NCBI GenBank assembly: GCA_964348455.1
Contig: CAYGCQ010000002.1
Coordinates: 16,121-80,120 of the forward strand
Direction of reading: 5' to 3'
DNA from: an uncultured Pseudomonadales bacterium
GTDB lineage: Bacteria; Patescibacteriota; Microgenomatia; UBA1400; MFAQ01
Length of the DNA: 64,000 nt
Shown here piece by piece: positions 18,509-62,158 of this stretch (the first letter of the stretch is position 1; each line of letters begins with the position of its first letter). A program made the position numbers and the translations under genes. The notes beneath the pieces are model-generated. The model searched no databases. It had not been told where the DNA came from and worked only from the letters and a program-made list of their open reading frames with translations.

Positions 18509-18535
18509 TGTCATCCCTGGCTTGACCAGGGATCC
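18509..18535 (+). repeat. REP-like hairpin repeat, type B (tgtcatccctgg-cttga-ccagggatcc)
   Basis: Conserved TGTCAT/ATCC flanks around a perfect 8-bp stem. Confidence 0.6.
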
Positions 18536-18569
18536 ATCCAATAAGTACCGAATTAGGAATTAATCTAAT

Positions 18570-18595
18570 GGATTCCTGCCTTTGCAGGAATGACA
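18570..18595 (-). repeat. REP-like hairpin repeat, type B, inverted orientation (BIME-like pair with 18509..18535)
   Basis: ggattcctgc-cttt-gcaggaatgaca is the reverse complement of the family consensus. Confidence 0.6.
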
Positions 18596-18665
18596 ATAAA
18601 ATATTTTCTGGATTGCCATGTCACCTTGTTCCTCGCAATGACGATAAACATATATAATATAGATA

Positions 18666-19358
18666 GTGAAATACGTCATTGGAAACTGGAAAAGCAATCA
18701 GAACATTACGGAGTCACTCGTTTGGCTAGATGGTCTGTCAGCTCTAAGCCCAAAGTTTACCTCCGACATCAGTGTAATTCTTTGCTTGCCTTTTACCGAC
18801 ATCGCAGCTTTCAATCATAAGCTTGCAGATTTAAATCTTCCCATTATCACCGGTTCGCAGAATGTATCTCACTTGCCACCCGGCAAGCATACCGGTGAAA
18901 TTACCGCAAACATGCTGAGTGAACTTGTTAGCTACTGTATAGTAGGTCACTCGGAGCGTCGCCACGAATTTGAAGAAACTTCGGACATGGTTGCTCAAAA
19001 AACCAGACTTCTGCTTGAAAATTCCATAACTCCCATTGTTTGTTTAGACCTGCCTTATATGGATGAGCAAATCAAAGCTTTGTTCCATCTGGACATTGAC
19101 GTTTCTCGATGTTTCTTTGTCTACGAGCCAATTTCAGCCATTGGTACCGGGAAAGCCGTGGATCCCGTAGATGCGAACCACACCGCTGGCCAGATTGCGT
19201 TTCTGACCGACAATAAAGCCCCCATTCTTTACGGTGGTTCCATTTCTCAGGACAATATTGCTTCCTTTGTAGACCAAAGCAAAATCGACGGAGTTCTGGT
19301 GGGTACCGACAGTTTAGAGCCAACTCTCTTTGCTGGTATTATATCTAGTCTTTCTTAA
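18666..19358 (+). CDS. tpiA: triose-phosphate isomerase
   Basis: GNWKSN, IVGHSERR, YEPISAIGTGKA active-site motifs. Confidence 0.9.
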   Translation: MKYVIGNWKSNQNITESLVWLDGLSALSPKFTSDISVILCLPFTDIAAFNHKLADLNLPIITGSQNVSHLPPGKHTGEITANMLSELVSYCIVGHSERRHEFEETSDMVAQKTRLLLENSITPIVCLDLPYMDEQIKALFHLDIDVSRCFFVYEPISAIGTGKAVDPVDANHTAGQIAFLTDNKAPILYGGSISQDNIASFVDQSKIDGVLVGTDSLEPTLFAGIISSLS

Positions 19359-19363
19359 CTCTG

Positions 19364-20428
19364 ATGAAACTTCGTCATGTTCGACCTTTTCGTGTTGCCA
19401 TCAAATTTTTCTCCACAATCCGTCAACACCTCTTACTAATTTTATTTGCATTCCTACTTGCCACAATCACTTCGCTTGGGGTTTATGGATTTCGCCTTTT
19501 AAATCAGCACAATGTAACACCTCAAGATCTTTTGAGCTTCTTTGGAAAGCCTTCACAAAATCTAGAGAGCACAAATAATATTACCAACTTTCTCTTGCTC
19601 GGAATAAGAGGTGAGGGCGCCGACTCACCCCTACTTACCGACACCATGATTATTTTTTCCTACAATCACGAATCAAAAATACCAACCACAATCAGTATCC
19701 CCAGGGATTTGTGGGTTCCATCCGGCAAGACAAGAATAAATGCGATGTATCAATATGGTGAAGAGGCTAGTCCTGGGGGTGGTATCGCCAGCATTCAAGG
19801 GGCGGTGTTAGAAGATTTAGGTCTGCCAATTCATTACACTGCCGTAGTAGACTTTGAGGTTTTTAGAGAGGCAATAGACCTAGTTGGGGGCATCGATGTA
19901 GATGTGAGTACTGGTTTTACCGACAATGAATTTCCAATACCAGGCAAAGAGAATGCTCTTCCTATTCCCTCACGTTACGAATCGATTACTTTTAACTCCG
20001 GCATTAACCACCTAGATGGAGAAACCGCTCTAAAATTTGTTCGGTCAAGACATTCTTTCGGCGATGAAGGGACAGACTTTGCCAGATCCAGACGTCAACA
20101 GCAAGTAATTTCTGCCTTAAGGCAGAAGATGGTCACCCCCTCATTCTTACTGGATGAAAAAAAAGTCAATTCATTACTGGATATCATTGGTTCAAACCTA
20201 AAAACAAACTTCCCGGCATACCTCTACCCTACTTTGGCCAAGCTAGCTCTCGACACCAAAGATCAAACCATTCAATCCCTGCCTCTTACGAATCTTCCTG
20301 ACGCCGACGGTGTCTCAATTCTTTACAATCCTCCGGTAAGAAACTACTCGGGTCAATGGGTGCTAATTGCCAAAGACAACAACTGGAACGCCCTAAAACA
20401 ATACTTGAAAAACCACCTCTCCCAATAA
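19364..20428 (+). CDS. LytR-CpsA-Psr (LCP) family cell-envelope polymer transferase
   Basis: N-terminal TM, LLLGIRGEGADSPLLTDTMII...ISIPRDLWV LCP core. Confidence 0.8.
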   Translation: MKLRHVRPFRVAIKFFSTIRQHLLLILFAFLLATITSLGVYGFRLLNQHNVTPQDLLSFFGKPSQNLESTNNITNFLLLGIRGEGADSPLLTDTMIIFSYNHESKIPTTISIPRDLWVPSGKTRINAMYQYGEEASPGGGIASIQGAVLEDLGLPIHYTAVVDFEVFREAIDLVGGIDVDVSTGFTDNEFPIPGKENALPIPSRYESITFNSGINHLDGETALKFVRSRHSFGDEGTDFARSRRQQQVISALRQKMVTPSFLLDEKKVNSLLDIIGSNLKTNFPAYLYPTLAKLALDTKDQTIQSLPLTNLPDADGVSILYNPPVRNYSGQWVLIAKDNNWNALKQYLKNHLSQ

Positions 20429-20430
20429 TT

Positions 20431-20478
20431 TGTCATTCCGACCGAACGAAGTGAGTGGAAAAATCTCCCTCCGCCTCC
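20431..20478 (+). repeat. composite repeat, type A (tgtcattccgaccga...gagtgga.aatctccctcc), 3 nt after the LCP stop
   Basis: Same 45-48 nt element also at 50495, 60381 and 46986, with a variant at 51874. Confidence 0.6.
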
Positions 20479-20482
20479 CGCT

Positions 20483-20508
20483 TGTCATCCTCGCGAAAGC
20501 GGGGATCC
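20483..20508 (+). repeat. REP-like hairpin repeat, type B (tgtcatcctcgc-gaaa-gcggggatcc)
   Basis: Flanks conserved; stem carries a G-U compensatory change. Confidence 0.6.
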
Positions 20509-20532
20509 ATGAGCTCTTTTTTCCTTGAGTTC

Positions 20533-22509
20533 CTACCTCACCTTTATCAAGTACGTCCCACCATCTTCAAAAACTTTTACTCCTAGAGATAATATAATAT
20601 CTTCATTTACCTGATACGTAGTTCTCTCATCCTCTCCCACGATAATCCACCCGACGTTATATTCTTTAAGAAGTTCTATTATTTCTACGCTGTTAAAACC
20701 TTCATATATTCCTTTTACATCAGTCTCTCTAGCTGCCACTGGTTCGTACCCACCTCTCCAAAGCCACTCATGAACTCTCCACCCCTGAATAGTAGGCACC
20801 CCGGAAAAAACAGAAACAGCATTAAAGTTTGAGTAACTATCTCCCACCGCTTCCACCATATTTTTACCGTCATAATTTCCCCTTAGATACTTGATTGCAG
20901 CGTATCTTTCCGGCATGCTTGACTCCAACCACCTTTCTCCACTCAAGCCTGAATAGGTATTAAAATTCGCATAGAAATTTGGGAATGCCACTACCGGAAA
21001 CACCATGGTTCCAATGAATATAAATGCTACCGCAAATACGGCAAATGCTCTGTACCACAGAAAAAGTTTTCTTTCTCCATCAAACAACTTACCAAACAGT
21101 GCTCCCGCCAAAAGACCAATCATGATTGAAGCTTGATATGTAAGTTTGAACATTGTGTTTGCTCTTGGGTGATCGGGATAAATATCTTTGGCGTAGACGA
21201 CTTCAGGAATAATGATTAGTAGTAATATACAAATCGCTAATGTCCAGATTGGCAAAGATTTATCTCCTTTTTTCTCAGTCAATACCGCCAGCACACTTAC
21301 TGTTATTCCACCGGTCCACAATACCGCCAGCTCCCAAAGGGGAGTTCTTTCCGTAACCATCTTTATTCCACTCGAAATAGACTGAAAAGTTACAAACCAA
21401 GGTAAGGCCGTCAGTGCCATAAAGAGAAGCATCACTCCGGCAGATTTTAAAAGTTTGACAAACTCTCTATGATCTCTGAGTATCATAATTATTCCCGAAA
21501 CAGTTAGAAGTAGTCCATAAACAGCCACATCCCATGTATTGGTCATCATCATTACTCCAAATAAAATTCCCAGTATCATTTCATCCCATATTTTTCTCGA
21601 ATGAATCCAGTGCAAGAAAATTAAAACAAAAGCCAACACGACCGGCAAATCAATCAGGTGACCATGTAGGTCCGCAACGACGAAAGAGTACCCTGGGAAC
21701 TCGTGAATGGTGTTATGGATAAATCTGGTGGCGTCTGCGTACCAGTAACCCATCAATCCTTTATGATTTAAAAAATACCAAATTACATGGGTATTTCCTG
21801 CCAACACCGTGGCGAATGCTCCGGTTAGTCCTCCAATCATGCCGGACATGTATTTCTTTGTTCCGCTCAAGAAGTATGAAATTGAAAAAGAAATAGAAAG
21901 TGATAGACCGGCTATAAAGGCTAGCATCATGTTATACCCTACGGCCGGGTCGACGCCAAAGTATCGGATAACAATGCTCGCCCAGTAATGCCCAAAAGAA
22001 TAATAGTTTATCGACTTGCCTGCTTGCCACATATCTGCCGCCGGGAGTGTTGGAGACATCAGATATCGGTTTACAAACCCAAAGTCCATAAATTTTTCCA
22101 ATGAGTCAATGTTTGGTAAAAATCCCCTGATATAAGCGATACCAAAAAGACCAACAAAAAATAAATACTCTTCGATGACGATAATTTTAAGAGTAGTTCT
22201 GGAAACGCTAATACTTTTCAATCCGCTTTTAAAGATAATTCCTAAATTTAAAATAATTACACCAGTCGTAGCCAAAATCAAACCCTGGTTTGTGTTGGCA
22301 GCTACACCCAAATTTGCCAGTTCCCAGATGACTAGTCCCGACATCATTGTAGTCAATAGTCTGGAAAGTGGGTAACCATTATCCGGAAGGTTGTGAAACA
22401 ATTTTTTTGTCAAAGGAAAGCTAATAATCTGTAAAAGAAAACTAATCAGATAGACTCTCATTACCAGCGCAATATCAGAGTTAAACATGGTTTTTAAAGC
22501 TTTTAGCAA
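20533..22509 (-). CDS. large polytopic membrane protein, GT-C / DUF2298 (Chlor_Arch_YYY)-like putative glycosyltransferase with a C-terminal extracytoplasmic domain
   Basis: 658 aa, more than 12 TM helices, then a ~170-aa soluble C-terminal domain. FPGYSFVVADLHGHLIDLP resembles the DUF2298 conserved block. Assignment from memory, not searched. Confidence 0.35.
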   Translation of the reverse strand: MLKALKTMFNSDIALVMRVYLISFLLQIISFPLTKKLFHNLPDNGYPLSRLLTTMMSGLVIWELANLGVAANTNQGLILATTGVIILNLGIIFKSGLKSISVSRTTLKIIVIEEYLFFVGLFGIAYIRGFLPNIDSLEKFMDFGFVNRYLMSPTLPAADMWQAGKSINYYSFGHYWASIVIRYFGVDPAVGYNMMLAFIAGLSLSISFSISYFLSGTKKYMSGMIGGLTGAFATVLAGNTHVIWYFLNHKGLMGYWYADATRFIHNTIHEFPGYSFVVADLHGHLIDLPVVLAFVLIFLHWIHSRKIWDEMILGILFGVMMMTNTWDVAVYGLLLTVSGIIMILRDHREFVKLLKSAGVMLLFMALTALPWFVTFQSISSGIKMVTERTPLWELAVLWTGGITVSVLAVLTEKKGDKSLPIWTLAICILLLIIIPEVVYAKDIYPDHPRANTMFKLTYQASIMIGLLAGALFGKLFDGERKLFLWYRAFAVFAVAFIFIGTMVFPVVAFPNFYANFNTYSGLSGERWLESSMPERYAAIKYLRGNYDGKNMVEAVGDSYSNFNAVSVFSGVPTIQGWRVHEWLWRGGYEPVAARETDVKGIYEGFNSVEIIELLKEYNVGWIIVGEDERTTYQVNEDIILSLGVKVFEDGGTYLIKVR

Positions 22510-23779
22510 TTATTTCTGCTACCTCTCGACCCATTTTCACCGCATAGTTTGTCCCTCTATCAAAGGGGTACACCATGCTCATATTCGCCAAGTAGACGTT
22601 ATCAGTAATTTTTTGACTCGGTATATGCTTAGAATAGTTTACAGGGAATACAGGTTGAGCGAAAGGCTTTCGGAATAAGTATGAGTTCTTAATTAATTTT
22701 TTGTCAAAGTTATTGTTAATTTTTTTTATAAAAGGTAAGTACAACTTGAGTAGCTCTACTTTGGTCATATTCAATTGAGCATTATCATCAGGTAAATAGT
22801 TTCCAAGGTAGAGCAATCTATTATTCCCATACATTTTTTTATCAATCATGTTCGTATGTTCTACTGCTACCAAAAATGGAAAATTATTCTCCAAAATATT
22901 TAGCCAATACCCCGATAGTACTTTTCTGGATATCTCCAAAATAAGTGTTTGGCCCCATAGATAATTTAGTTTGGGGAACTTCAGTCCCTTAATAAGCTTT
23001 TCGGCAATTGGCGCAGGCGTCGTAACCACTACGGCATCAAACTCCTCGCCGTTAACAACAATTTTTTTGTTGGAACTCTTATTATCAAGCAATTTGTCAT
23101 CCTCGCGAATGCTGGGATCCACAGTCTTAATTTTCTTGACTACAGTGTTCAACCTTATCTCTCCACCATTCTTTTCAATAAATGTTTCCAGTTTCTCTAC
23201 AAACTCATCAAACCCACCCTCAAAGTAGCCGAGATTCTTTGTTCTTTTTGCTACTCTACTCCAAAACCAAGCTAAATTTACCACATCTACATAAGGTCCG
23301 AACTTGGCTGAGAGTAGTTTTTCCCAAATTAACTCATATCCTTCTCGACCTATTAATCGTGGAAGTGCCTCTACTGCTTTGTATCTTTCCAAGAACAGAC
23401 CATTTGGAATAATCTTTAGCACAAATAGCCCAACACCCATTCTTAGCCTTGACCATAGCGAGAGCTGGGAAAATCTTAAAAGTGAAAGGGGGGAGTCAAG
23501 TCGTACCTCTTTACTATTAAGAAAGCTGGAAGTTATCGGGTTTTTTATTAAAATCTTCGCATTCACTTTTTTCGCAAGGGAAAAAATATCCTTATCATTA
23601 GTAAAAATGTGATGATAGAAAACTTCTAAGTTCCACTTCCATTTTCCAGAATTAAATCCCCGTGCAAGACCTCCTGCTTTTTTGTCTGATTCGAATACAA
23701 CTGAGGAGATATTGTTGTCGGCTAAGTAAGCCGAGCAACAAAGTCCGGTGATGCCTCCACCAATTATCGCAACTCTCAT
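22481..23779 (-). CDS. FAD-dependent flavoenzyme, UDP-galactopyranose mutase (Glf)-like
   Basis: N-terminal Rossmann VAIIGGGITG...E.....GGLAR; YHHIFTNDKDIF matches the UGM GAHIFHTNDKYIW block. Overlaps the downstream membrane protein by 29 nt. Confidence 0.45.
   Translation of the reverse strand: MRVAIIGGGITGLCCSAYLADNNISSVVFESDKKAGGLARGFNSGKWKWNLEVFYHHIFTNDKDIFSLAKKVNAKILIKNPITSSFLNSKEVRLDSPLSLLRFSQLSLWSRLRMGVGLFVLKIIPNGLFLERYKAVEALPRLIGREGYELIWEKLLSAKFGPYVDVVNLAWFWSRVAKRTKNLGYFEGGFDEFVEKLETFIEKNGGEIRLNTVVKKIKTVDPSIREDDKLLDNKSSNKKIVVNGEEFDAVVVTTPAPIAEKLIKGLKFPKLNYLWGQTLILEISRKVLSGYWLNILENNFPFLVAVEHTNMIDKKMYGNNRLLYLGNYLPDDNAQLNMTKVELLKLYLPFIKKINNNFDKKLIKNSYLFRKPFAQPVFPVNYSKHIPSQKITDNVYLANMSMVYPFDRGTNYAVKMGREVAEIIAKSFKNHV
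23095..23120 (+). repeat. REP-like type B element embedded in frame inside the Glf-like CDS (encodes ...VDPSIREDDK... on the minus strand)
   Basis: tgtcatcctcgcgaatgctgggatcc with both family flanks. Confidence 0.5.
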
Positions 23780-23785
23780 CTTTCT

Positions 23786-25198
23786 TTATAGAGCTAAGAG
23801 TATTCCTATGATAGCTAGCATGAGTCCTCCGCCAAATGCGGCTATACCGGGGAAGTCTAAGATTCCAGTCTCAGGAAGTACTTCTCGTTGAGCTACAGCA
23901 TCTGTGGGAGCTACTGTTCCTCCGTCAACGATCTCATCTGTGGGAGCTACTGTTCCTCCGTCAACGATCTCGTCCGTTGGCGCAGCCGTAATCTCGTCCG
24001 TTGGTGCAGCCGTAATCTCATCAGTTGGAGCTGTTGTTGGGCAAACACAGGAACCTGCATCCAAACAGGCTGCTTTTCTACAGGTTTCTGTTCCGGTGTC
24101 ACAAGTTAGACCTGTGGTGCATTCGGAGTCGTCAGTGCATGACTCATTACAAGCAACTACGGACTTGACTGCAAGATCTTTGTCAGCTGTCTTTACGGTA
24201 TCGCCATATGAAAGTTCACTTGTATTTGTAATCACAGTCCCATTCACTGCCGCGTTTGAAACTTTGACCCTAAAAGTAAGCGTCTTTGACGCTCCTACAG
24301 CTAAAGTGATTCCAGAACAGGTAACTTTGTAGTTTGAGTTTGAAAAAGTACAGTCAGTGGTAGTATCTACAAATGTTAACAGATCTTGGTTCTCACCATC
24401 CAATGTATCTGAAACGGTTACATTTGTGGCTGGAGCAGTGCCATCATTTTTAATTACTAAAGCGTATATAAAAGTTTGGTTACGAGAAACTGTTGTGATG
24501 TCGGTTGTGGAACCTTCTTTAAAAGCTTTTTTAGTAATAGACACATCTACCACTTGGCATACAGCAGTTGCAGCACACTGTTTAGTAGTTGCTACTCCGC
24601 ACGAATCCGTACAAGTAGTGATCACCGATGCTGCCTGACCACAAGTAGTAGGACAATCGGGGGAACAAGTTACTTCAGCAGTAGCTACACAAATTGCAGT
24701 TGCAGACACTGAACAGGCCGCGGAAGTTTCGAAACAGATAGTACTGCCATCGGCTTTTTTGCATCTACCGTCGGTTTCGTCGCAGGTAAGTCCAGTAGCA
24801 CACCCGGAGGTTGAAGTACAAACTCCACATTCTGAGGGTTTTGTCGGAGGAGTGGGAGTTGTGGTTGGTGCGGTTGGACATTTAGTCATATCCTTCGTCC
24901 ACGCACCTCCTACGCTAGGGCAACACCAATTTTCATTTCCACAAACCTCTACTCGTCCGGTAGTGGTACAGACGGAATCGCTGGAAGTGCCATCAGACTC
25001 AGGAGGTGTACAGCTTTGTAAGAGGTTCGGTGTCGTTGGGTTCGGACAATGCTCCTCGCAGGTAGCAGCTCTGGAACCTGTTGGGACTATTCCCTGACCT
25101 GTACTAATTCTGTATGAAACAAAGATTGCTGCAGCTGCAATAAGAGCAATAAGAGCTATTGTTATGATTGCGACTATGTTTTTTCTTTTGTTATTCAT
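23786..25198 (-). CDS. Cys-rich, Thr-rich cell-surface protein with a DUF11-like repeat domain and a C-terminal LPETG sorting signal
   Basis: N-terminal TM; many Cys; C-terminal TAAPTDEI repeats; ends VLPETGILDFPGIAAFGGGLMLAIIGILLAL. Confidence 0.7.
   Translation of the reverse strand: MNNKRKNIVAIITIALIALIAAAAIFVSYRISTGQGIVPTGSRAATCEEHCPNPTTPNLLQSCTPPESDGTSSDSVCTTTGRVEVCGNENWCCPSVGGAWTKDMTKCPTAPTTTPTPPTKPSECGVCTSTSGCATGLTCDETDGRCKKADGSTICFETSAACSVSATAICVATAEVTCSPDCPTTCGQAASVITTCTDSCGVATTKQCAATAVCQVVDVSITKKAFKEGSTTDITTVSRNQTFIYALVIKNDGTAPATNVTVSDTLDGENQDLLTFVDTTTDCTFSNSNYKVTCSGITLAVGASKTLTFRVKVSNAAVNGTVITNTSELSYGDTVKTADKDLAVKSVVACNESCTDDSECTTGLTCDTGTETCRKAACLDAGSCVCPTTAPTDEITAAPTDEITAAPTDEIVDGGTVAPTDEIVDGGTVAPTDAVAQREVLPETGILDFPGIAAFGGGLMLAIIGILLAL
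23899..24018. repeat. intragenic tandem repeats: 36-bp unit x2 (perfect) then 24-bp unit x2 (1 mismatch), encoding the TDEITAAP / TDEIVDGGTVAP stalk repeats
   Basis: Direct repeats read from sequence, directly upstream (in gene sense) of the LPETG signal. Confidence 0.8.
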
Positions 25199-25210
25199 TT
25201 TTAATTTCGT

Positions 25211-28221: not shown

Positions 28222-28243
28222 AATTTATTTTTCTAACTAATAA

Positions 28244-40449: not shown

Positions 40450-40475
40450 TGTCATTCCTGCGAAGGCAGGAATCC
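40450..40475 (+). repeat. REP-like hairpin repeat, type B (tgtcattcctgc-gaag-gcaggaatcc), 5 nt after the grpE stop
   Basis: Perfect 8-bp stem, conserved flanks. Confidence 0.6.
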
Positions 40476-42435: not shown

Positions 42436-42452
42436 TCTATAGTCATTGTTTG

Positions 42453-42472
42453 GCCGCCTTCGGGCGGCCATT
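42453..42472 (+). promoter_or_regulatory. stable RNA hairpin with a UUCG tetraloop (ggccgcc-ttcg-ggcggcc) in the dnaK-dnaJ spacer; no T-run
   Basis: Perfect 7-bp GC stem read from sequence. Confidence 0.45.
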
Positions 42473-42490
42473 GCAATCTGGATAATAAAT

Positions 42491-46185: not shown

Positions 46186-47160
46186 ATGGAAGACAAAACC
46201 CAGTTTATATCAGCCAAAAAAATCTTCGATTCCGCATCCTCATTTATTGTTGCTCTACCCCCTGACCCCTCTTTAGACATTGTTTCTTCCGGCCTTAGTC
46301 TCCATCTAGCCCTAATTGCTTCCGGGAAAAAATCTCAAATTGGATGTGGCACTCCAGTTCACATTGATCCCAAAATTATCGGTGCTCAGGAAATAGCGGA
46401 CAGTATTGGTGCAAAGAATCTAATTATCTCCTTTGATTATCACGAAGATGATCTCGAAAAAGTAGACTATGATGTTCGTCCTGATGGAAAATTTTATCTA
46501 ATGGTCAAGCCAAAATCTGGCGCTCCAGTTCCAGATGTCAGTAATGTAAAGTATTCCTACTCCGGGGCTCAAGCAGATTTGGTCATAACTTTAGGCATTA
46601 ATTCTCTGGAGGAACTAGGAAAGATATACGCCGACGAAAAAAACTTTTTAGATGAAGGTAAGATTTTAAGTTTAAACATTACCCCCTGGCCTGTCCAGTT
46701 CACCAAAAACATTCTCCACCAAACATCCACCTGCTTTTCAGAGCTTGTAGCGGAACTAATTGAGAAAGTGGATTTAAAAATGTCAGGTGATGCCGCCAGA
46801 AACTTATTACAGTTCATATACGAAGAAACAAAAAATCTTACGAGCCCAAAGATGACAGCCGGAACCTTTTCCTCAATCGCTTATCTAATGAGAAATGGAG
46901 CTAAATTACCAAGCCAGCAGACTTATACTCCCAGGTTTGCTCAGCCAACCTTTTTTGAAGCCCCTCACGCACCGCTCAGCACCTCTGTCATTCCGACCGA
47001 AGTGGAGGAATCTCAAACCACCAATATAGGGGACGAAGAAAATATTCCCATGCCACAGGAAGAGAATAAGCCTTACGTCATACCTCCTTCCAAGCTAACC
47101 GAACAGCCGGTGCCAAACGACTGGACCAAGCCCAAGATCTTCCGCGCAGGCGACCTGTAG
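46186..47160 (+). CDS. degenerate DHH/NrnA-like protein (DHH motif not conserved), with a low-complexity C-terminal tail that reads through a repeat element
   Basis: N-terminal SFIVALPPDPSLDIVSSGLSLHLAL...GK resembles the NrnA architecture but has no H..PD.D. Confidence 0.35.
   Translation: MEDKTQFISAKKIFDSASSFIVALPPDPSLDIVSSGLSLHLALIASGKKSQIGCGTPVHIDPKIIGAQEIADSIGAKNLIISFDYHEDDLEKVDYDVRPDGKFYLMVKPKSGAPVPDVSNVKYSYSGAQADLVITLGINSLEELGKIYADEKNFLDEGKILSLNITPWPVQFTKNILHQTSTCFSELVAELIEKVDLKMSGDAARNLLQFIYEETKNLTSPKMTAGTFSSIAYLMRNGAKLPSQQTYTPRFAQPTFFEAPHAPLSTSVIPTEVEESQTTNIGDEENIPMPQEENKPYVIPPSKLTEQPVPNDWTKPKIFRAGDL
46986..47022 (+). repeat. type A repeat (short variant) embedded in frame in the 3' region of 46186..47160
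   Basis: tgtcattccgaccgaagtggaggaatctcaaaccacc translates as SVIPTEVEESQTT. Confidence 0.55.
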
Positions 47161-47850: not shown

Positions 47851-48138
47851 ATGGCTCTTAAATCAGACACAAAAATAGACATCATTAAGAAATTTTCCGC
47901 TAGTCCTAAGGACACCGGCTCTCCTCGCGTGCAGGTAGCCCTGCTTACCTCACAGATCATGGAGCTCACTAGCCACCTTAAGGTCCACAAGAAAGATAAC
48001 CACTCCCGTCGAGGTCTCCTCAAGATTATCTCCAAGCGTCGACGCCTTCTTAACTACCTTAGTAAATCCAATCCCGCCGACTACTTAGACATCACCAAGT
48101 CACTTAAAATATCAAGCCAACTGCGCTCAGCCGACTAA
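47851..48138 (+). CDS. rpsO: 30S ribosomal protein S15
   Basis: ...DTGSPRVQVALLTSQI..LT.HLK.HKKD.HSRRGLL...S.RR.LL.YL S15 signature; start set at ATG 47851. Confidence 0.85.
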   Translation: MALKSDTKIDIIKKFSASPKDTGSPRVQVALLTSQIMELTSHLKVHKKDNHSRRGLLKIISKRRRLLNYLSKSNPADYLDITKSLKISSQLRSAD

Positions 48139-48267
48139 TTGTCTCCCGCCAAAGCGGGACTATCAAGTCATTTGAGGAGTAAATAGAGCACATCCCGGAT
48201 GGGGTATCTTCTTTTTTCTTCTCAAGACCTGTGGTGGAGCCAGATACAAATAAGAAAGGAACAGGAT

Positions 48268-50494: not shown

Positions 50495-50540
50495 CGTCAT
50501 TCCGACCGAGCAATACGAGTGGAGGAATCTCCCTCCACCC
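50495..50540 (+). repeat. type A repeat directly 3' of pnp
   Basis: cgtcattccgaccgagcaatacgagtggaggaatctccctccaccc. Confidence 0.6.
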
Positions 50541-50543
50541 AAT

Positions 50544-50569
50544 AAAAAATCCCCAAATGGGGATTTTTT
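50544..50569. terminator. bidirectional Rho-independent terminator (aaaaaatcccc-aaat-ggggatttttt)
   Basis: Perfect stem flanked by A6 and T6. Confidence 0.7.
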
Positions 50570-50642
50570 ATTATCAAACCTATATCTGCTAAAATCCTAC
50601 TAGATAAACATCATTATCGTGTCTTTATAAGAAAAAAATAAT

Positions 50643-51868: not shown

Positions 51869-51873
51869 ACCAT

Positions 51874-52282
51874 CGTCATTGCGAATCTCGGTACTCCGAG
51901 CTGTGGCAATCTCCCTCCACCTCATTCACACCAACGTTCCATGCAAATCATCCCATTTTGGATTCATCCTTTCAACAAATCATTCCTCCTCTTCCTCGAC
52001 CAAGATTTTATTTGCTTTTCCCTCTGAATTGCTTCAATCATTACGTCGAAAATTCGTAGTAAACAAGTTTGTTGAGTGAATATTCTTTTGTAAATCCTTC
52101 CGAAACCTTAATCTTATGTTCCCAAGATCTTCTTAGTAAATCCTTTGTTACTCCTACATAAATAGTAGTGTTGTATTCGTTAGTCATAATATAAATACTT
52201 GGAGTTTTAACCATCGATTTATTTAATTTATCTTTCGTGGATTGAGATTGCCACGTCGTAAATACACTCCTCGCAATGACGG
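51874..52282. mobile_element. about 410-bp unit bounded by imperfect inverted repeats (cgtcattgcga...gtggcaatctc; 51874-51921 and 52239-52282, related to the type A repeat) enclosing a frameshifted GIY-YIG gene
   Basis: Inverted repeats read directly from sequence; inferred MITE-like or small element. Confidence 0.3.
51964..52214 (-). pseudogene. GIY-YIG nuclease superfamily (COG2827-like, about 83 aa) gene disrupted by a 1-nt frameshift near 52041
   Basis: Frame 1: MVKTPSIYIMTNEYNTTIYVGVTKDLLRRSWEHK...KLVYYEFST*. Shifted frame continues ...MIEAIQREKQIKSWSRKRRNDLLKG* (GIY, YIG, R, E and REKQIK motifs present). Confidence 0.6.
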
Positions 52283-52286
52283 TATT

Positions 52287-53681: not shown

Positions 53682-53789
53682 TAAGTTATGTAAAAATATT
53701 CAATTCCCTATAAGTGTACTCGTCTAAATCCATTTGTAAAGTCACAATTTATCCAAAAAAAAGCCCTACCACGAGGTAGGGCATATAAA

Positions 53790-54068
53790 CTAGACGAACA
53801 CCGACCAAACCACCAGGGCAAAGAGTAGGTGAAACCCAAGTGACATCAATGCTCCTATTCTGACTTTATCATCCCCAAGCACAAGGCAAAATAGTAATCC
53901 GGCTAAGTACACCCAATCTCCAATCACCGGAATAAAGGTGATGAAAAAAAGGAAAAAATATGTAATAGTTCCCCATTCTTCACCGTGTATATAGGCAAAC
54001 ACACCCCCTACGATCAACAGAAACAAATAGATCGTAGTTAAGGACTGCATCATCCCAATAATATCCAT
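53790..54068 (-). CDS. small 3-TM membrane protein
   Basis: 92 aa, strongly hydrophobic; upstream, in the same operon, of the ATP-grasp gene. Confidence 0.4.
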   Translation of the reverse strand: MDIIGMMQSLTTIYLFLLIVGGVFAYIHGEEWGTITYFFLFFITFIPVIGDWVYLAGLLFCLVLGDDKVRIGALMSLGFHLLFALVVWSVFV

Positions 54069-54095
54069 ATTATTCTCCTTATGCCATCTCGCTTT

Positions 54096-54722: not shown

Positions 54723-55113
54723 TTTATCTCCTCTTGAATTATAGGTTTAACGTGCACGAAACTGAGCTATATTATCCTATAGCTAATTCAAGATTGCTGG
54801 ACAAACAGCGGACTTGATATCTCAGATCTCAATGCACTATTTAAGCATTTTGAGGAAGAAAAAGTAATAGCCTTAGATCTTGCCAAAAAGCTTAGAGAAA
54901 ATATCATCGAGAAGTTGCAAAAACCATAGTCAGTCTTCTTTTGTGCCTAAAACAGATTCATGCTATAATAACCGTCAGTCCACGGAAACGTTGTCGAAGT
55001 GATTTGTGAGAATTGTAGAATCTGTTAGATTTTCGATCCCAACCCTTAGAAACTTATCCCGTAAATTAGGATTTTGGCGTGTTTCCTCGCCTAAAGCTAA
55101 ATGTATTGGTCAT

Positions 55114-55140
55114 TGTCATTCCCGACTTGATCAGGAATCT
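55114..55140 (+). repeat. REP-like hairpin repeat, type B (tgtcattcccgac-ttga-tcaggaatct)
   Basis: One stem mismatch relative to the copy at 60428. Confidence 0.55.
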
Positions 55141-55198
55141 ATATAGATGACCCAGCATTCAGTTACAATATTATTAGGAAAATTAATTACAAAAGATT

Positions 55199-56851: not shown

Positions 56852-56852
56852 C

Positions 56853-57581
56853 ATGCCGGAATTGCCTCCTTTTGACGGCACCGAGTATCCCGAACAACAT
56901 GCTCTTCAAGCATCCCTTGAGCGTCAAGTCGGAATAGACCCTTTCTTTGGAACTGATGAAATGGTTACTCAAAAACTTAAAAGCTTTAAAGCTTTGGTTG
57001 AGAAATGCAACGACATAGACGTTCAAACCAGTGATCTTAGGCATGTAAAACTTCAGGATATTTTGAATGAATTTGATAATCTTAAACAAAGTATTGAGAA
57101 ATATCTCGGTATAGGCCTTAGTCTTGATCAAGATGATTATGTCTTTGCTGGAGATCATTCCGGACAGGCAGGCGAAATGTTTTCTAGGCTTGCCGCCTTT
57201 GGGGTTATTAAAGATTTACCATCCATTGAAAATTCTGAGGATAAAACCTTGAAAGACAGTATAGATCTCTCAAGCCCAAATGAAATTACGTGTAAATATG
57301 TTTTTCCACTTTTTGATTCCACCTCAGGCCAAACACTCCACAAGATTTGTGAATTAAAAATTAATCGATTCAAAACCCAAGAAGAAATCAACCAAAAATA
57401 TTCAGAGTTTCAATCCGAGGCAGAAAAACTTCTACAGAAACACAGTGAAGAGTTGGCTGATTTTTATAAAAAATACGGAAAAATAAGTAGAAAAACGGTT
57501 TCAGGAAAGCCGAGTGAGAGAAATCGCAAAAGAAAGTTCTACCGGATTGATCAAGGAACTAACAAGTCTGAATCTGTATAG
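56853..57581 (+). CDS. hypothetical protein (acidic, coiled-coil rich, basic C-terminal tail)
   Basis: 242-aa ORF, 1-nt gap after rnj. Confidence 0.4.
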   Translation: MPELPPFDGTEYPEQHALQASLERQVGIDPFFGTDEMVTQKLKSFKALVEKCNDIDVQTSDLRHVKLQDILNEFDNLKQSIEKYLGIGLSLDQDDYVFAGDHSGQAGEMFSRLAAFGVIKDLPSIENSEDKTLKDSIDLSSPNEITCKYVFPLFDSTSGQTLHKICELKINRFKTQEEINQKYSEFQSEAEKLLQKHSEELADFYKKYGKISRKTVSGKPSERNRKRKFYRIDQGTNKSESV

Positions 57582-57609
57582 GTTAGATTGAGTTATACTA
57601 AATATATCT

Positions 57610-59754
57610 ATGGCTCGCAAAAAAGGTCGCCGCTCTAAACCATATAAAGTCAGTCTAAAAAAAGACACGATGAACTCTATTCTGGCAGTCGTCTTGATGG
57701 GTATCGGTGGTCTCATTGCCATTTCTTTTTCGCAACAAGGCGATGCTCTCATGAAGATTAATGAGATCGGCCAGCAGTTTCTAGGCTGGCCTCTGCTCTT
57801 CCTGCCATTTATCTTTATAGTTGGTGGTCTAATCATTACCCACGTAAAACTCCCCATTGCCTCCACCAATGTACTTCTGGGCAGTGTCATTACAATGGTC
57901 TCTCTCGAGGGTTTATTCGGGGCCGGCGCTGTAGGAATTGGACTCAAAGACTCTCTCACCTCCCTCATCTCTTTACCAGGAGCCATTCTCTTTTATTTTG
58001 TCGGGGTTGTCATTGGACTCTTCATTCTCTTTGAAACTTCCATCGAAGATTTATTAGTATTAGTCCAAACTCTCTTTGGTGGAGTATCTGGTGCTCTGGG
58101 AAAAATAAAAAGCTTGCCCGTCAAAGGAGGTGCTTCCTCTTTTTTGAGCAAATCCGGCACTGTCAAGATTACGGGGGGGGAACAGTTGTTGAACCCTGCT
58201 CCTATTAATACAGATGAATCTGCTCCGGTAAAAATAGTCCACAAGGAACTCCATGCAAGTCGTTCTGCTCAAACTGCTATCGAAACCAAAAAACTCCCGG
58301 ACGGTGCCACTTCAGGTATTTGGCATTTCCCTCCTGTTAGTTTACTTTCAGATCAGAAGATCGGAAAGGCTGATCGGGGAGATATCAAAAAAAATATCGA
58401 GGTTATCCAAAACACGCTGGGGTCATTTGGGATTCAATGTAAGGTTACTGAGGTTCACCAGGGTCCGGCTGTCACTCAGTATGCCCTTGCCATTACTGCC
58501 GGAACCAAATTGTCTAAGATAAGCGCTCTTCAGTCCGACCTAGCCTTGGCGCTTGCTGCTCCTCAAGGTCAAATTCGCATTGAAGCTCCCATCCCCGGCC
58601 GAGATCTTGTGGGCGTAGAAATCCCCAATCGTTCTTTGGAATTTGTATCTCTTCGAGACATGCTTACCGACAAGGCTATGCAAGAAAGTCGTTCTAAAAC
58701 TGCGATATCGCTGGGGCTTGATGTTTCCGGTCAACCGGTAATCGCCGATATCAACAAGATGCCTCACTTACTGATAGCTGGTACTACTGGTTCTGGAAAA
58801 TCAGTTTTGATAAATGCCATAATTTCCTCAATACTTTTCAGAGCTTCACCCGAAGAGGTTAAGTTCATCATGGTCGATCCTAAGCGTGTTGAACTTACTC
58901 CATATAACGACATTCCACATCTTCTTACCCCTGTCATTACTGATGTTTCCAAAGTAGTAAATGCTCTCAAGTGGGCCGCCGCCGAAATGGATCGTCGATA
59001 TCGACTTTTTGAAGAAATGTCAGTTAAAAATATTGCCGGATATAACGAGCTCAGTGGATTTCAAGCCATGCCATATATCATTATCATCGTCGATGAAATG
59101 GCAGACATTATGATGTCCAAAAACGCCGGAGAAGTCGAGGAGAACATTGTCCGTTTGGCTCAAATGGCTCGAGCTGTTGGTATTCATCTTGTTTTGGCAA
59201 CTCAGAGGCCTTCCGTAAATGTTTTAACTGGAATTATTAAAGCCAACATTCCTGCACGTATCTCTTTCCAAGTAACTTCCATGATAGATTCTCGTGTAAT
59301 TATTGATACTCCGGGTGCCGAGAAACTTCTTGGAAAAGGGGATATGCTTTACATTCCTCCTGACACTGCTAAGCCAAAACGTATTCAGGGGGCTTTCGTT
59401 TCGGACAAAGAGATCAAAAATCTTATTGATTATATTAAAGGTTCAGGTGTCACAGCTCAGCTCGATCCTACCATTACTAAAGATAAGGGGAAAAGTACCA
59501 TCGGCACCACAGGTCAAAACATGGGAGATGTCGATGAGAAATTTGAAGAGGCCGCGCAACTTTGTATTGCCGAAGGAAAAGGTTCTGCTTCACTACTTCA
59601 ACGCCGTCTCGAAGTCGGTTATGCTCGTGCGGCAAGGATTCTTGATCAGCTTGAGGAGGCAGGAGTATTAGCTCGTGCAGAAGGCAACAAGCCTCGTGAA
59701 GTCATTGTCAGTAGTTTGAATGAAGTCTTTCCTTCCAGCGAAGAAAATTCTTAA
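57610..59754 (+). CDS. ftsK: DNA translocase FtsK/SpoIIIE
   Basis: N-terminal 4 TM, motor domain LLIAGTTGSGKSVLINAII, C-terminal gamma wHTH (LLQRRLEVGYARAARILDQLEEAGVL). Confidence 0.9.
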   Translation: MARKKGRRSKPYKVSLKKDTMNSILAVVLMGIGGLIAISFSQQGDALMKINEIGQQFLGWPLLFLPFIFIVGGLIITHVKLPIASTNVLLGSVITMVSLEGLFGAGAVGIGLKDSLTSLISLPGAILFYFVGVVIGLFILFETSIEDLLVLVQTLFGGVSGALGKIKSLPVKGGASSFLSKSGTVKITGGEQLLNPAPINTDESAPVKIVHKELHASRSAQTAIETKKLPDGATSGIWHFPPVSLLSDQKIGKADRGDIKKNIEVIQNTLGSFGIQCKVTEVHQGPAVTQYALAITAGTKLSKISALQSDLALALAAPQGQIRIEAPIPGRDLVGVEIPNRSLEFVSLRDMLTDKAMQESRSKTAISLGLDVSGQPVIADINKMPHLLIAGTTGSGKSVLINAIISSILFRASPEEVKFIMVDPKRVELTPYNDIPHLLTPVITDVSKVVNALKWAAAEMDRRYRLFEEMSVKNIAGYNELSGFQAMPYIIIIVDEMADIMMSKNAGEVEENIVRLAQMARAVGIHLVLATQRPSVNVLTGIIKANIPARISFQVTSMIDSRVIIDTPGAEKLLGKGDMLYIPPDTAKPKRIQGAFVSDKEIKNLIDYIKGSGVTAQLDPTITKDKGKSTIGTTGQNMGDVDEKFEEAAQLCIAEGKGSASLLQRRLEVGYARAARILDQLEEAGVLARAEGNKPREVIVSSLNEVFPSSEENS

Positions 59755-59757
59755 ACC

Positions 59758-60375
59758 ATGAAGACCGTTGGTCAAATAATCAAATCGGCTAGGCAAAAAC
59801 GCAGTCTTAGCGTAGATCAGCTTTCTTCGCTTACAAAAATAGATTCCAAGTATATTGCCGCGCTCGAACTTGATCATTACTCAGATCTCCCTTCAGAAAC
59901 ATTTGCCAAGGGTTTTATTAGAAATCTCAGTCTAAGGCTCGATCTAAACCCGAATGAACTCATCGCTATTTTTAGAAGGGATTTTCGACAACCGGACAGA
60001 GTCGGTCCAAAAACAATACATAGAAAAACTTTTTCCGGATTTCCACCCCAGTCTCTCCCCTTTATTTTTGGCGGTTTGGTCTTCGTAGTTTATTTAGTTT
60101 TTCAGTTTAGAGCCATTCTTACTCCTCCAAAACTCGAAATAACTCGGCCATTAAATGGCGCGGTTCTTGTATCCCCAATCGAAATTGAAGGGGATACGGC
60201 TATAGATGCCAATATATATATAGGTGATGATACCCAGGTTAAGCCTGACACTGAGGGTCATTTCTTGGCCAGGATAAATATACCTGTGGGGGAGACGGTG
60301 CTGGAGATAAAATCCACCAATCGATTTGGTAGAACGACGGATAAAAATATCTCGGTCACCATAATATCCAAATAA
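59758..60375 (+). CDS. rodZ: RodZ-like cytoskeleton protein (N-terminal XRE-type HTH, TM, C-terminal domain)
   Basis: GQIIKSARQKRSLSVDQLSSLTKIDSKYIAALE HTH, then a TM helix. Confidence 0.55.
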   Translation: MKTVGQIIKSARQKRSLSVDQLSSLTKIDSKYIAALELDHYSDLPSETFAKGFIRNLSLRLDLNPNELIAIFRRDFRQPDRVGPKTIHRKTFSGFPPQSLPFIFGGLVFVVYLVFQFRAILTPPKLEITRPLNGAVLVSPIEIEGDTAIDANIYIGDDTQVKPDTEGHFLARINIPVGETVLEIKSTNRFGRTTDKNISVTIISK

Positions 60376-60380
60376 CCGTT

Positions 60381-60426
60381 TGTCATTCCGACCGAATGTA
60401 GTGAGTGGAGGAATCTCACACCACCC
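60381..60426 (+). repeat. type A repeat 6 nt after the rodZ-like stop
   Basis: tgtcattccgaccgaatgtagtgagtggaggaatctcacaccaccc. Confidence 0.6.
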
Positions 60427-60427
60427 T

Positions 60428-60454
60428 TGTCATTCCCGACTTGATCGGGAATCT
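60428..60454 (+). repeat. REP-like type B hairpin (tgtcattcccga-cttga-tcgggaatct) immediately after the type A copy; same A+B arrangement as at 20431-20508
   Basis: Perfect 8-bp stem. Confidence 0.6.
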
Positions 60455-60496
60455 ATACAAATAACTCATTATCAACTTTTTTGGTATGATGAATTA

Positions 60497-60799
60497 ATGA
60501 CTCTTCCACAAATAATCTCTTTAATTTCTACAGTACTACTCACCTCTGTCGCGTTAATCATTGGAGTTCAACTCATCTACATTCTAAAGGAGGTTCGCTA
60601 CTCCCTTACTCGAGTAAATCAAACCATAGACACCGTCTCTGACACAGTCGAGAAAATATCACAGCCCGCTATTGGTTTTTTTGCCATATTGGAAGGTTTC
60701 AAAGAAAGCGGCAAGATAATTGATGCTATTTCTGGATTACTAGGTCGGGACAAACCCAAGTCACCAGTCGACGTCGACGCATATGACAACTCCATCTGA
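60497..60799 (+). CDS. small membrane protein, DUF948-like (N-terminal TM + coiled coil)
   Basis: Start trimmed to ATG 60497 because the 5' part of the track ORF is a translation of the repeat elements. Confidence 0.4.
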   Translation: MTLPQIISLISTVLLTSVALIIGVQLIYILKEVRYSLTRVNQTIDTVSDTVEKISQPAIGFFAILEGFKESGKIIDAISGLLGRDKPKSPVDVDAYDNSI

Positions 60800-61136
60800 C
60801 ACATCCAAAAAAGACGGTTCTTTTTCTTCATTCTCTATCGGAGTTGCTTTAGGTGTTATGGGGGCCTTACTTCTTGGTACTGAAGAGGGTCGAAATATAA
60901 TAAAAAAAGTTGTTAAAGCTGTCCCTAATAAGTACAAGACTCCTCCGGTAAACATTCCTCATCCTGTAACTACTATGCCCATAATCCCAACCGAGGAAAC
61001 ACCTCACCACACGACTTTTGAGCACTCCACTCCATTTGGAGACACTATTTCTGAAGAAGCCCCACCTCCTCCGGCACCCCTCGTTCGACCTACCCGCCCT
61101 GAACCTTTCACCCCCAATTCATATCCTATAGATTGA
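60783..61136 (+). CDS. YtxH-like membrane protein with a Pro-rich C-terminus
   Basis: IGVALGVMGALLLGTEEGRNIIKK resembles the YtxH motif. Confidence 0.35.
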   Translation: MTTPSDTSKKDGSFSSFSIGVALGVMGALLLGTEEGRNIIKKVVKAVPNKYKTPPVNIPHPVTTMPIIPTEETPHHTTFEHSTPFGDTISEEAPPPPAPLVRPTRPEPFTPNSYPID

Positions 61137-61213
61137 TTTACCTTCAGCAATTGGTATAATCTCGTAAGCATTGAGGGTTTAATTCTAAATTCGCATTTTA
61201 AAAAGGAGCTAGT

Positions 61214-61444
61214 ATGATTTTTGGACTTCCAACAGTAAGCGTCATTCTTCTCGTTGCAGCATTCATTATTACAGTTATAGTCCTTTTTTCGGCTGTGGTA
61301 GATAGTTCATTTCCCATATTTCCATCTTCGGTTGAATATCTACGACTTCAAATGGCCAGGAAAAATCACACCAGGGCAGTCCAAACTTTCTGGTTGATAG
61401 TCGCAGTGCTTTTCTGTTTAGCGGCTGTAATCGCAGCAATATAA
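61214..61444 (+). CDS. small 2-TM membrane protein
   Basis: 76-aa ORF with an AAGGAG SD. Confidence 0.4.
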   Translation: MIFGLPTVSVILLVAAFIITVIVLFSAVVDSSFPIFPSSVEYLRLQMARKNHTRAVQTFWLIVAVLFCLAAVIAAI

Positions 61445-61481
61445 GAAAAATTGATAACCTTAACTACCTTTTCCTACAAAA

Positions 61482-61514
61482 AGTCCCGCCTCACGGCGGG
61501 ACTATTTTTATTTC
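61482..61514. terminator. bidirectional terminator (agtcccgcc-tcac-ggcgggact) flanked by A/T runs between convergent genes
   Basis: Perfect 9-bp stem. Confidence 0.65.
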
Positions 61515-61969
61515 AGTTCCCAGATTTGTCCCTGAGGGAAGGTCACCTTGTAACCGTGTCTCTCACTGGTTATCCGGAATGTTCCTGCCTCAAGGCTAAC
61601 CGTTTCACCAGCCCCCTTAGCTCTGGTAATTACTTCGGAGCCATTTAGGTGTCGATCGCTGATCCAGAGAAGTTTATCGTGGGTTATGTGAAGATCAACA
61701 ATTCTTCCGTTACTCCATAGCTTAAGTGGCGCGCTATCCAAGTGAATTTTTATTCCCTTGCTGGGGTTGTATTCACTCCACTGTCTTCGCAGATCCAATT
61801 TTCCGTCTACAAAGGTGGCCACTGCCGCACCTATGATTACAAAGAATACGACTGTGCTTGAAGCCAGCCAGGTTGCTGCCATATCTGGAGCGATCAAAGA
61901 CATGTAGAACGGGGCACCACCAATGGTAATCATAATCAAAGCCATAATCCAAGCCTTATACTTACGCAT
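61508..61969 (-). CDS. membrane-anchored hypothetical protein
   Basis: 153 aa, two N-terminal TM helices then a soluble domain. Confidence 0.4.
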   Translation of the reverse strand: MRKYKAWIMALIMITIGGAPFYMSLIAPDMAATWLASSTVVFFVIIGAAVATFVDGKLDLRRQWSEYNPSKGIKIHLDSAPLKLWSNGRIVDLHITHDKLLWISDRHLNGSEVITRAKGAGETVSLEAGTFRITSERHGYKVTFPQGQIWELK

Positions 61970-62131
61970 ACGAACCTCCTGTTTTAATTTGAATTTACCC
62001 TATAATTATACCACCATATGTCTAGGTTTTCCCTGCCTACAACCACACCCTTCCTCACCCCAAACGTCACCCCCAATTCCTAGCCTCAAAAACTACCCCA
62101 TAGCTTGCTATTCTACTTTTTAAAAATAACT

Positions 62132-62158
62132 TGTCATTCTGAACTTGATTCAGAATCC
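62132..62158 (+). repeat. REP-like type B hairpin (tgtcattctgaa-cttga-ttcagaatcc)
   Basis: Perfect 8-bp stem with compensatory base changes relative to other copies. Confidence 0.6.

Follow-up and report, generated by a model that had tools for sequence, protein, structure and literature searches.

A 64-kb (64,000-nt) stretch of DNA from a relative of Candidatus Collierbacteria (Patescibacteria), referred to below as the window, contains a family of short dispersed hairpin repeats. These are very probably CGTC/TGTC-tagged palindromic repeats, that is, Ssn-related motifs (SRM, NTS-like hairpins), paired with the GIY-YIG nuclease Ssn. A preliminary description of the window had assigned them to the repetitive extragenic palindromic (REP) elements recognised by RAYT transposases, a plausible but wrong annotation. 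The correction moves the repeats to a family whose enzyme was identified only in 2025, and extends the pairing of hairpin and GIY-YIG nuclease to Candidatus Collierbacteria. The lineage is indicated by the triosephosphate isomerase (TIM), which is 88–89% identical to those of Candidatus Collierbacteria and Microgenomates metagenome-assembled genomes (MAGs), with consistent gene content.

The short form of the repeat, type B, consists of TGTC-[8-bp stem beginning AT]-[4–5 nt loop]-stem-C(C/T)A. There are eight copies in the window, all of which were found where the preliminary description had placed them. Two of them form an inverted, convergent pair in the 192-bp spacer between the divergent genes pcrA and tpiA, confirming what had been proposed. 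These are 18509–18535(+), TGTC-ATCCCTGG-cttga-CCAGGGAT-CCA (50 bits; −8.1 kcal/mol, z −3.3), and 18570–18595(−), TGTC-ATTCCTGC-aaag-GCAGGAAT-CCA, which was identified by pattern, covariance model and folding. The remaining copies are at 20483–20508(+), between convergent LytR-family and DUF2298 genes; 23095–23120(+), within the amine oxidase coding sequence 22481–23779(−); 40450–40475(+), between grpE and dnaK (pattern match and folding); 55114–55140(+), upstream of the RNase J gene (covariance model); 60428–60454(+), a ‘master’ copy TGTC-ATTCCCGA-cttga-TCGGGAAT-CTA with 52.5 bits and z −5.2, present on at least 120 metagenome contigs; and 62132–62158(+), with stem ATTCTGAA, which opens a convergent doublet upstream of alaS.

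In an alignment of the eight copies that takes in the neighbouring sequence, no variation is seen in T-G-T-C-A-T on the 5′ side or in A-T-C on the 3′ side, and the sequence outside the unit is unrelated between copies. The unpaired 5′ tag TGTC is present in all eight, and the 3′ tail is CCA in six and CTA in two (55114 and 60428). The pattern TGTCATYCY-N-RGRATCC has six exact matches in the window, with 0.00 expected from 100 dinucleotide shuffles. The shared form TGTCA...TCC that had been given for all copies holds for six, since 55114 and 60428 end in ATCT instead of ATCC. Likewise, the arms are fully complementary except in 55114 (one mismatch), 23095 (a G.T pair and a mismatch) and 20483 (one T.G pair). 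Folded as single-stranded DNA (ssDNA), six of the eight give the expected 8-bp hairpin, with energies of −5.6 to −8.1 kcal/mol; five of these have z scores between −2.3 and −5.2, and 20483 has −1.7. Copies 23095 and 55114 are decayed, with z about 0, and fold no better than shuffled sequence. A covariance model built from the eight recovers all of them at 42–52 bits. It also yields a decayed inverted partner beside 62132, at 62169–62195(−) (tag TGAC, one stem mismatch, 16.3 bits), which had been missed previously, and a weak candidate at 48130–48171 (22.9 bits). Scans of the window against Rfam (gathering threshold) and for tRNAs gave no match.

The weak candidate corresponds to a hairpin at 48137–48163(+), TTGTC-TCCCGC-caaa-GCGGGA-CTATC, located just after rpsO, in which the AT at the base of the stem is missing. 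Either degeneration of a family copy or an unrelated hairpin could account for it.

Compensatory changes in the stems had been claimed from the window copies, and they are borne out when all copies are aligned. The covariance model was searched against the window and 99 fetched loci, giving 74 aligned hits, of which 72 are distinct. In these 72, 99.2% of the cells pair, and five of the eight stem pairs have changed in both arms. Double-change cells number 52, compared with 9.3 in column shuffles, and none of 500 shuffles reaches 52. In slid registers pairing falls to 15–50%. Stem pairs 1 and 2 are invariant AU/UA across the set. It should be borne in mind that the alignment was fitted to the model and that many of the loci were picked by a pattern that fixes the outer five pairs, so that the inner three pairs are the informative ones. 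Stems that vary between copies and yet remain complementary are the signature of a folded single strand and not of base-specific recognition of a duplex. This argues against the elements being double-stranded operator sites for a dimeric transcription factor, as do the asymmetric tag and tail, which give each element an orientation, and the copies within coding sequences and after genes. Operator sites would be palindromic, as these are, and some copies do lie in spacers that contain promoters (pcrA/tpiA, upstream of rnj, upstream of alaS), but this explanation is extremely improbable.

The architecture described above is one already in the literature. Di Nocera, De Gregorio and Rocco (2013; PMC3733652) defined CGTC REPs, with a CGTC tag often changed to TGTC, a CCA tail, stems of 8–9 bp nearly always starting AT, and loops of 4 nt (family 1) or 5 nt (families 2 to 4). 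CGTC-1 comprises the dRS3 element of Neisseria and RPE-6 of R. conorii. Inverted dimers and in-frame copies within genes were described. According to the authors the elements ‘apparently lack a dedicated transposase’, and neither RAYT nor IS200 genes are flanked by CGTC units. As judged from its sequence, type B appears to fit every point of this definition. More recently, Chenal et al. (2025; PMC11893778) extended dRS3 to an oriented sequence, NTS (CGTCATTCCCGCGMAVGCGGGAATCYRG), and to the degenerate SRM. Across phyla, these motifs flank genes for a 94-residue single-domain GIY-YIG protein, SsnA (cd10448). SsnA and three homologs bind the forward strand as ssDNA only, and cut a few nucleotides upstream; RNA, the reverse strand and duplex DNA are not acted on. 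Binding depends most on the C that directly follows the palindrome, and cleavage on the three nucleotides preceding it, while changes in loop identity and extensions of the loop are tolerated. In the same study, 81% of genomes with more than 200 SRMs carry ssn. In Neisseria the system restricts transforming ssDNA. A 2026 preprint treats ‘SsnA-associated NTS repeats’ as a class of repeat apart from REP. The positions that are invariant in the window copies (TGTC, AT...AT and C) are those that are critical in the published SsnA mutagenesis.

The window itself contains an ssn-like gene. A six-frame motif search found one GIY-YIG open reading frame (ORF), 52041–52214(−), of 57 residues, the C-terminal part of which continues in two other frames. 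The complete single-domain gene, 51926–52214(−), has been frameshifted by two 1-nt deletions. Joining the frames gives a protein of 96 residues that matches PF01541 over positions 3–77 of 78 (55 bits). An intact 96-residue homolog (P0001) has 89% identity to it over 100% coverage, and intact Ssn-like homologs in general are 87–101 residues long. The gene for P0001 is syntenic in eight groundwater metagenome contigs, lying between a 460-residue ORF and an AAA/Lon-lid gene, close to pnp and rpsO. Compared with the ortholog in locus L124, one deletion is in a T-run and the other in GATTT(G)GTTG. Both recur identically in L172, an independent assembly from another analysis, and the gene is therefore a real pseudogene. 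Rescue by programmed frameshifting was considered and rejected, as the two separate deletions would each need a +1 shift. Residues Y8, Y19 and E66 of the reconstructed protein have the same spacing as the published catalytic residues Y6, Y17 and E64, as judged from residue numbering and not from an alignment to SsnA. A search of PDB sequences with the intact homolog gave no hit, and NCBIfam gave only a weak sub-threshold match to a group I intron endonuclease family.

The pseudogene is bracketed by two longer relatives of the type-B hairpin, here called type A: a forward copy immediately upstream, 52246–52280(−), and an inverted copy downstream, 51875–51911(+). The same bracket surrounds the intact orthologs (L124–L131) and a non-syntenic homolog in L132 (GCA_964554975.1). 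L132 also carries a second, more divergent GIY-YIG gene of 90 residues, at 7296–7568, 2.4 kb from its ssn homolog.

Outside the syntenic region, the association was examined in loci fetched by the DNA motif of type B. A scan of viral contigs for TGTCATTCC-N10-13-GGAATCC matched at least 120 loci. Among the matches listed, 118 of 148 have a stem of at least 8 bp, and loops are GNAG, GNAA or CTTGA/CCTGA; the family is therefore very widespread. The exact 25-mer GTCATTCCCGACYTGATCGGGAATC, which is the 60428 copy and has matches in L137 and L150 too, is carried by at least 120 metagenome contigs. The suggestion that the family extends beyond the window is thus borne out by these contigs, by copies in relatives and by the viral contigs. 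Among the 126 listed matches to the 25-mer, 125 have unique flanks, and conservation around it is limited to position −1 (T 71%, C 24%) and positions +1 to +3 (C/T, A, G/T), with C 74% and T 26% at +1 and A 86% at +2. The listed 25-mer loci (707 kb) contain 351 family hairpins, compared with 28 in shuffles, and Ssn-like genes are present in ten of them, mostly with type-B copies immediately on both sides. In L046 and L121, both fetched solely by the type-B motif, Ssn-like genes lie between canonical short hairpins, and type-B brackets are also found in L173, L242, L260 and L262. Control loci selected by TIM (about 550 kb) contain no hairpin-bracketed ssn.

It is a further observation on the listed 25-mer copies (L173–L292) that the 12 nt on each side are poor in G on the forward strand (G about 13%, C 21–27%), which could indicate either a target preference or avoidance of competing pairing.

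In an unbiased scan, all ORFs lying between convergent hairpin pairs were listed from about 1.8 Mb of repeat-rich loci. Among the matches listed, ssn is the only recurrent bracketed ORF, found in 12 distinct loci with gaps of 296–337 nt; the others are one-off ordinary genes such as groES, and no family of RAYT size recurs. This result bears on the assignment to REPs of the RAYT (IS200/IS605-like Y1) class, with 18509/18570 as a bacterial interspersed mosaic element (BIME). The architecture is REP-like, in that the unpaired tag is conserved, the palindrome covaries and inverted doublets occur, and since only 64 kb of the genome has been seen, a RAYT gene may lie elsewhere. However, the tag is (T/C)GTC and not the GTAG of RAYT-type REPs, no Y1 transposase domain (Y1_Tnp) came up when essentially all window ORFs of 100 residues or more were scanned with Pfam, and, as noted above, CGTC units were reported to flank no RAYT or IS200 gene (PMC3733652). 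What had been put forward as the hallmark of RAYT REPs is therefore unsupported, and a RAYT origin is very unlikely; the bracketed gene is a GIY-YIG (Ssn-like) gene for about 96 residues. The description of the family as REP-like nevertheless stands in the broad sense, for dispersed and oriented repeats with a conserved 5′ tag and covarying stems, for which CGTC-tagged REP is the name in the literature (PMC3733652).

The geometry of the bracket is fixed, with the forward copy upstream and the inverted copy downstream, in 12 independent loci and with two repeat subtypes. This fixed geometry, with its narrow range of gaps, is hard to reconcile with the proposal that the hairpins are inert or selfish palindromes, spread by another enzyme or by replication slippage, into which an ssn cassette merely inserts. 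The published biochemistry demonstrates direct sequence-specific recognition, and the association at genome scale is strong, with the 81% figure given above (PMC11893778). The proposal does have points in its favour. The resident ssn is dead, and yet relatives with an intact ssn have fewer copies in the orthologous region than the window has; multiplication of the repeats by Ssn itself is no published result; and in Neisseria, insertion sequences and phage elements target such palindromes (PMC11893778). On balance we consider it improbable.

The identification of the hairpins as SRM served by Ssn must be weighed against several observations. The published SRM expression, HGTCWYN(0-2)YYVSBRHN(0-5)WNVSBRGN(0-2)RNCYNB, applied strictly, matches only two of the eight type-B copies (20483 and 23095; 0.18 expected). 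In the other six the sole departures are at stem positions where the expression calls for S or V, the stems being richer in AT. With so few matches, the structural scan described below and the covariance model were used instead. The ssn gene of the window is a pseudogene, and it is bracketed by type A and not type B, so that the link between type B and Ssn rests on other loci. The gene is a putative member of the SsnA family (cd10448), placed there by the PF01541 match and residue spacing. The biochemistry comes from homologs elsewhere, and in Patescibacteria the pairing is predicted from sequence. Finally, altering the sequence of the palindrome while keeping its structure abolished the activity of N. 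meningitidis SsnA (PMC11893778), and it is consequently not established that one enzyme serves the several stem variants found here.

The window was scanned by structure, for GTC followed by a stem of 5 bp or more that begins AT, an interior of at most 30 nt, the returning stem and C. This gave 18 sites, compared with 4.1 in shuffles. These include the eight type-B copies and two groups with long loops, about seven elements in all, whose common GTC-AT...AT-C frame had not been connected with type B in the preliminary description. Type A has the outer stem ATTGC...GCAAT. In addition to the two copies beside ssn, it comprises 18610–18642(−), GTC-ATTGC-[18 nt]-GCAAT-CCA, and a probable member between dnaK and dnaJ, 42442–42478(+), GTC-ATTGT-[GGCCGCCttcgGGCGGCC]-GCAAT-CTG, with one G.T pair in the outer stem. 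Type C has the form ATTCC-GACCGA...GTGGA-GGAAT, and is found at 46987–47014(+) inside the coding sequence 46186–47160(+) (GTC-ATTCC-gaccgaagtgga-GGAAT-CTC), at 50496–50529(+) directly after the PNPase gene, and at 60382–60415(+) after the helix-turn-helix gene 59758–60375. The 28-mer type of 46987 is also present in L132 and L150. Three further hits, 11830, 34829 and 48547, were judged to be chance: they have G.T-rich stems of 5–7 bp in coding sequences, and no relatives elsewhere. The family thus has about 16 members in 64 kb, or roughly one per 4 kb, which is a considerable load as Collierbacteria genomes are tiny.

Several features of the long-loop elements and their surroundings are worth recording. 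The type-A copy downstream of ssn (window 51875–51911; L124 6306–6340; L132 10265–10299; L142 121–155) has an inner helix surrounded by a common GAA...(C)TGTG. The inner helix is CTCGG/CCGAG in the window, and shows compensatory substitutions (CTCGG/CCGAG, CCGTG/CACGG, CCCGCC/GGCGGG). This two-helix variant falls outside the published SRM expression. The 3′ half of type C (GTGGAGGAATCTC) could pair with a downstream CCTCCAC(C) or CACCACC (50496–50545 and 60382–60425), and the element may therefore extend further 3′, with an alternative fold. An ORF of 139 residues starting with TTG, 60380–60799(+), begins over two repeat copies and has no Pfam hit. The repeats are open in four of their six frames and so inflate ORF calls, which makes it unlikely that this ORF is a gene. 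Directly after the pcrA stop there is a perfect palindrome, 16529–16548, ATCCCCGC-ttag-GCGGGGAT, which has an SRM-type stem but no GTC tag or C tail. An A-run and a T-run lie at its sides. It resembles an intrinsic terminator that works in both directions, and may be related to the family by exaptation or convergence.

Comparison with relatives indicates that the repeats move, or did so recently. In 16 Collierbacteria loci covering the same region, the number of copies varies between extremes of 12 in L137 (17.6 kb; the pcrA–tpiA spacer alone has five) and zero in L141, L144 and L145, which indicates recent gain and loss. Further, the convergent doublet 62132/62169 is kept in L150, complete with its spacer and with an intact counterpart of the decayed 62169 copy, but between the DUF2298 and amine oxidase genes and not upstream of alaS. 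Being conserved at a different locus, doublets therefore behave as mobile units. Single hairpins, convergent doublets and the ssn cassette are thus all mobile, or recently were. The term BIME-like used previously for the inverted pair is partly apt, in that inverted doublets occur and, with limited support, behave as units; it does not hold in its RAYT/REP sense. The closest relatives are only 70–79% identical in DNA, which is too diverged for inferences about target sites or duplications, and protein-level comparisons were therefore used. Six of the collinear Collierbacteria-like MAGs (L138, L141, L144, L145, L148 and L150; TIM 76–89% identical) are titled ‘uncultured Pseudomonadales bacterium’, which is probably a labelling error.

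Three copies in the window are eroded, namely 62169 (tag TGAC and a stem mismatch), 23095 and 55114, which is consistent with loss of the resident nuclease. As six perfect hairpins remain, ssn was either inactivated recently or has another copy elsewhere. The hairpins would be served by an ssn gene outside the window, or be recent relics starting to erode.

The positions of the copies relative to genes raise the question of whether they are retained mainly for a role in RNA, as terminators, attenuators or stabilisers of mRNA 3′ ends. Several copies are sited as if in a 3′ UTR or within an operon (after the LytR-family gene, grpE–dnaK, dnaK–dnaJ and after pnp), most forward strands in the window are the sense strand of the neighbouring gene, the T.G pair of 20483 would be a legal G.U pair in RNA, and RNA functions were proposed for REPs by Di Nocera et al. 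(2013; PMC3733652). Against this, none of the copies is followed by a T-run, the tails being CCATCC, CCATTA, CCATGA, CTATAT and similar, although the 16529–16548 palindrome does have its A- and T-runs. Copies also occur in divergent promoter spacers and in coding sequences, that at 23095 being antisense. In the 126 listed copies from unrelated loci, neither orientation is preferred with respect to the ORFs nearby. There is no Rfam match, and an RNA role would leave the conserved unpaired tag and tail, and the association with ssn, unexplained. It is therefore an unlikely main reason for retention, although the hairpins may have a secondary role of this kind. The same 126 copies show no GC-skew bias in their 1.5-kb flanks (p = 0.10). 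Within the window, forward copies outnumber reverse copies by 12 to 4, on the strand with negative GC skew; given the absence of skew or orientation bias in the unrelated loci, no claim is made concerning the replication strand. It had been argued that selection acts on a DNA or RNA hairpin, and it is the DNA half of this that is retained, as published SsnA binds neither RNA nor double-stranded DNA (PMC11893778).

Two copies are found in frame within conserved proteins. The copy at 23095 is in a conserved FAD amine oxidase (22481–23779(−)), where it encodes DPSIREDD in a variable loop that is 10–16 residues shorter in most orthologs. In the ortholog of L137 (14014–15387(−)) this loop holds GLPQLEYEIRND, derived from type A, and in that of L142 (11938–13311(−)) it holds WIHPFGYQRPDQVRDD. 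A second loop has no insert in the window, WIPGQARND (type B) in L137 and WIHPFGYQRPDQVRDD again in L142. Different members of the family thus fill the same two loops in orthologs, most of which have no insert at all. From these alignments, the two loops appear to be hot spots for in-frame insertion within the Patescibacteria lineage, in the manner of Rickettsia palindromic elements (RPEs). The other copy, 46987, encodes SVIPTEVEES in a variable acidic linker of a conserved 324-residue protein, where orthologs have NVPEEAEEG. It may be either an old shared insertion or a new one. Such copies have parallels in Rickettsia and other bacteria, where CGTC REPs and RPEs read in frame were reported earlier.

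On the basis of the published biochemistry, the following mechanism can be proposed. When the forward strand becomes single-stranded, for instance during replication, repair or DNA uptake, it would fold into the hairpin. Ssn would bind the base of the stem together with the C that follows, and would cut a few nucleotides 5′ of the tag, ignoring double-stranded DNA, RNA and the reverse strand. By analogy, the Collierbacteria Ssn may act in the same way on types A, B and C, which is plausible because the tag, the outer stem pairs and the tail are common to all three, and because loops are tolerated by the published enzyme.

A more speculative extension, to which we give only a modest chance of being right, is that in Patescibacteria the nuclease and its hairpins form an actively mobile, modular family. 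The nuclease would read only the tag and the outer five base pairs, as suggested by natural long-loop variants with arbitrary inner helices. Repeated in-frame insertion into the same surface loops would amount to RPE-like remodelling of proteins by a GIY-YIG enzyme, and the system would mark or restrict ssDNA entering through the competence and type IV pilus machinery, on which these episymbionts rely. None of these points has been described for Patescibacteria. Irrespective of this, the presence of natural long-loop variants and multiple stem variants in one genome bears on how Ssn reads its site, and is relevant to proposed programmable ssDNA cutters. The in-frame copies at hot spots, and a dead ssn beside perfect hairpins, offer on a small scale a natural experiment in how such elements arise, spread and decay.

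It remains to compare the family with known systems. The GTAG REPs, REPINs and BIMEs of E. coli and Pseudomonas are similar in being short tagged palindromes with unit-like convergent doublets, a preference for intergenic sites and repeats on both sides of the cognate gene. They differ in the tag, GTAG as against CGTC/TGTC, and in the enzyme, which is an HUH/Y1 transposase and not a GIY-YIG nuclease. RPEs resemble the present elements in being palindromic repeats found in frame in surface loops or linkers of conserved proteins (here 23095 and 46987), and in that different members occupy the same loop in orthologs. However, the elements here are 26–37 nt, compared with about 100–150 nt for most RPEs, and only RPE-6 and RPE-4 have been equated with CGTC REPs.

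The closest match for the repeat itself is with CGTC REPs (families CGTC-1 and CGTC-2), which share the CGTC/TGTC tag, the 8-bp stem from AT, loops of 4 nt (GAAA, GAAG, AAAG, GAAT) or 5 nt (CTTGA), the CCA tail, inverted dimers, in-frame copies and the lack of a RAYT. The differences are that the host belongs to the Patescibacteria (Collierbacteria), outside the five phyla given in 2013 (PMC3733652), that the stems are richer in AT, and that long-loop types A and C, with interiors of 12–23 nt and sometimes an inner covarying helix, are abundant alongside the short hairpins. With the NTS/SRM–Ssn system the family shares the GTCAT...ATCY frame and its critical positions, the cassette of SRM, ssn and inverted SRM, the high density of copies, and a single-domain GIY-YIG protein of about 96 residues (94 in SsnA) with the same Y/Y/E spacing. 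It differs in that six of the eight type-B copies are outside the search expression, that the window cassette is made of long-loop members, and that the resident ssn is frameshifted. The repeats are thus a genuine family that leaves current understanding intact, and provide a new lineage for the known CGTC-REP/SRM–Ssn kind.

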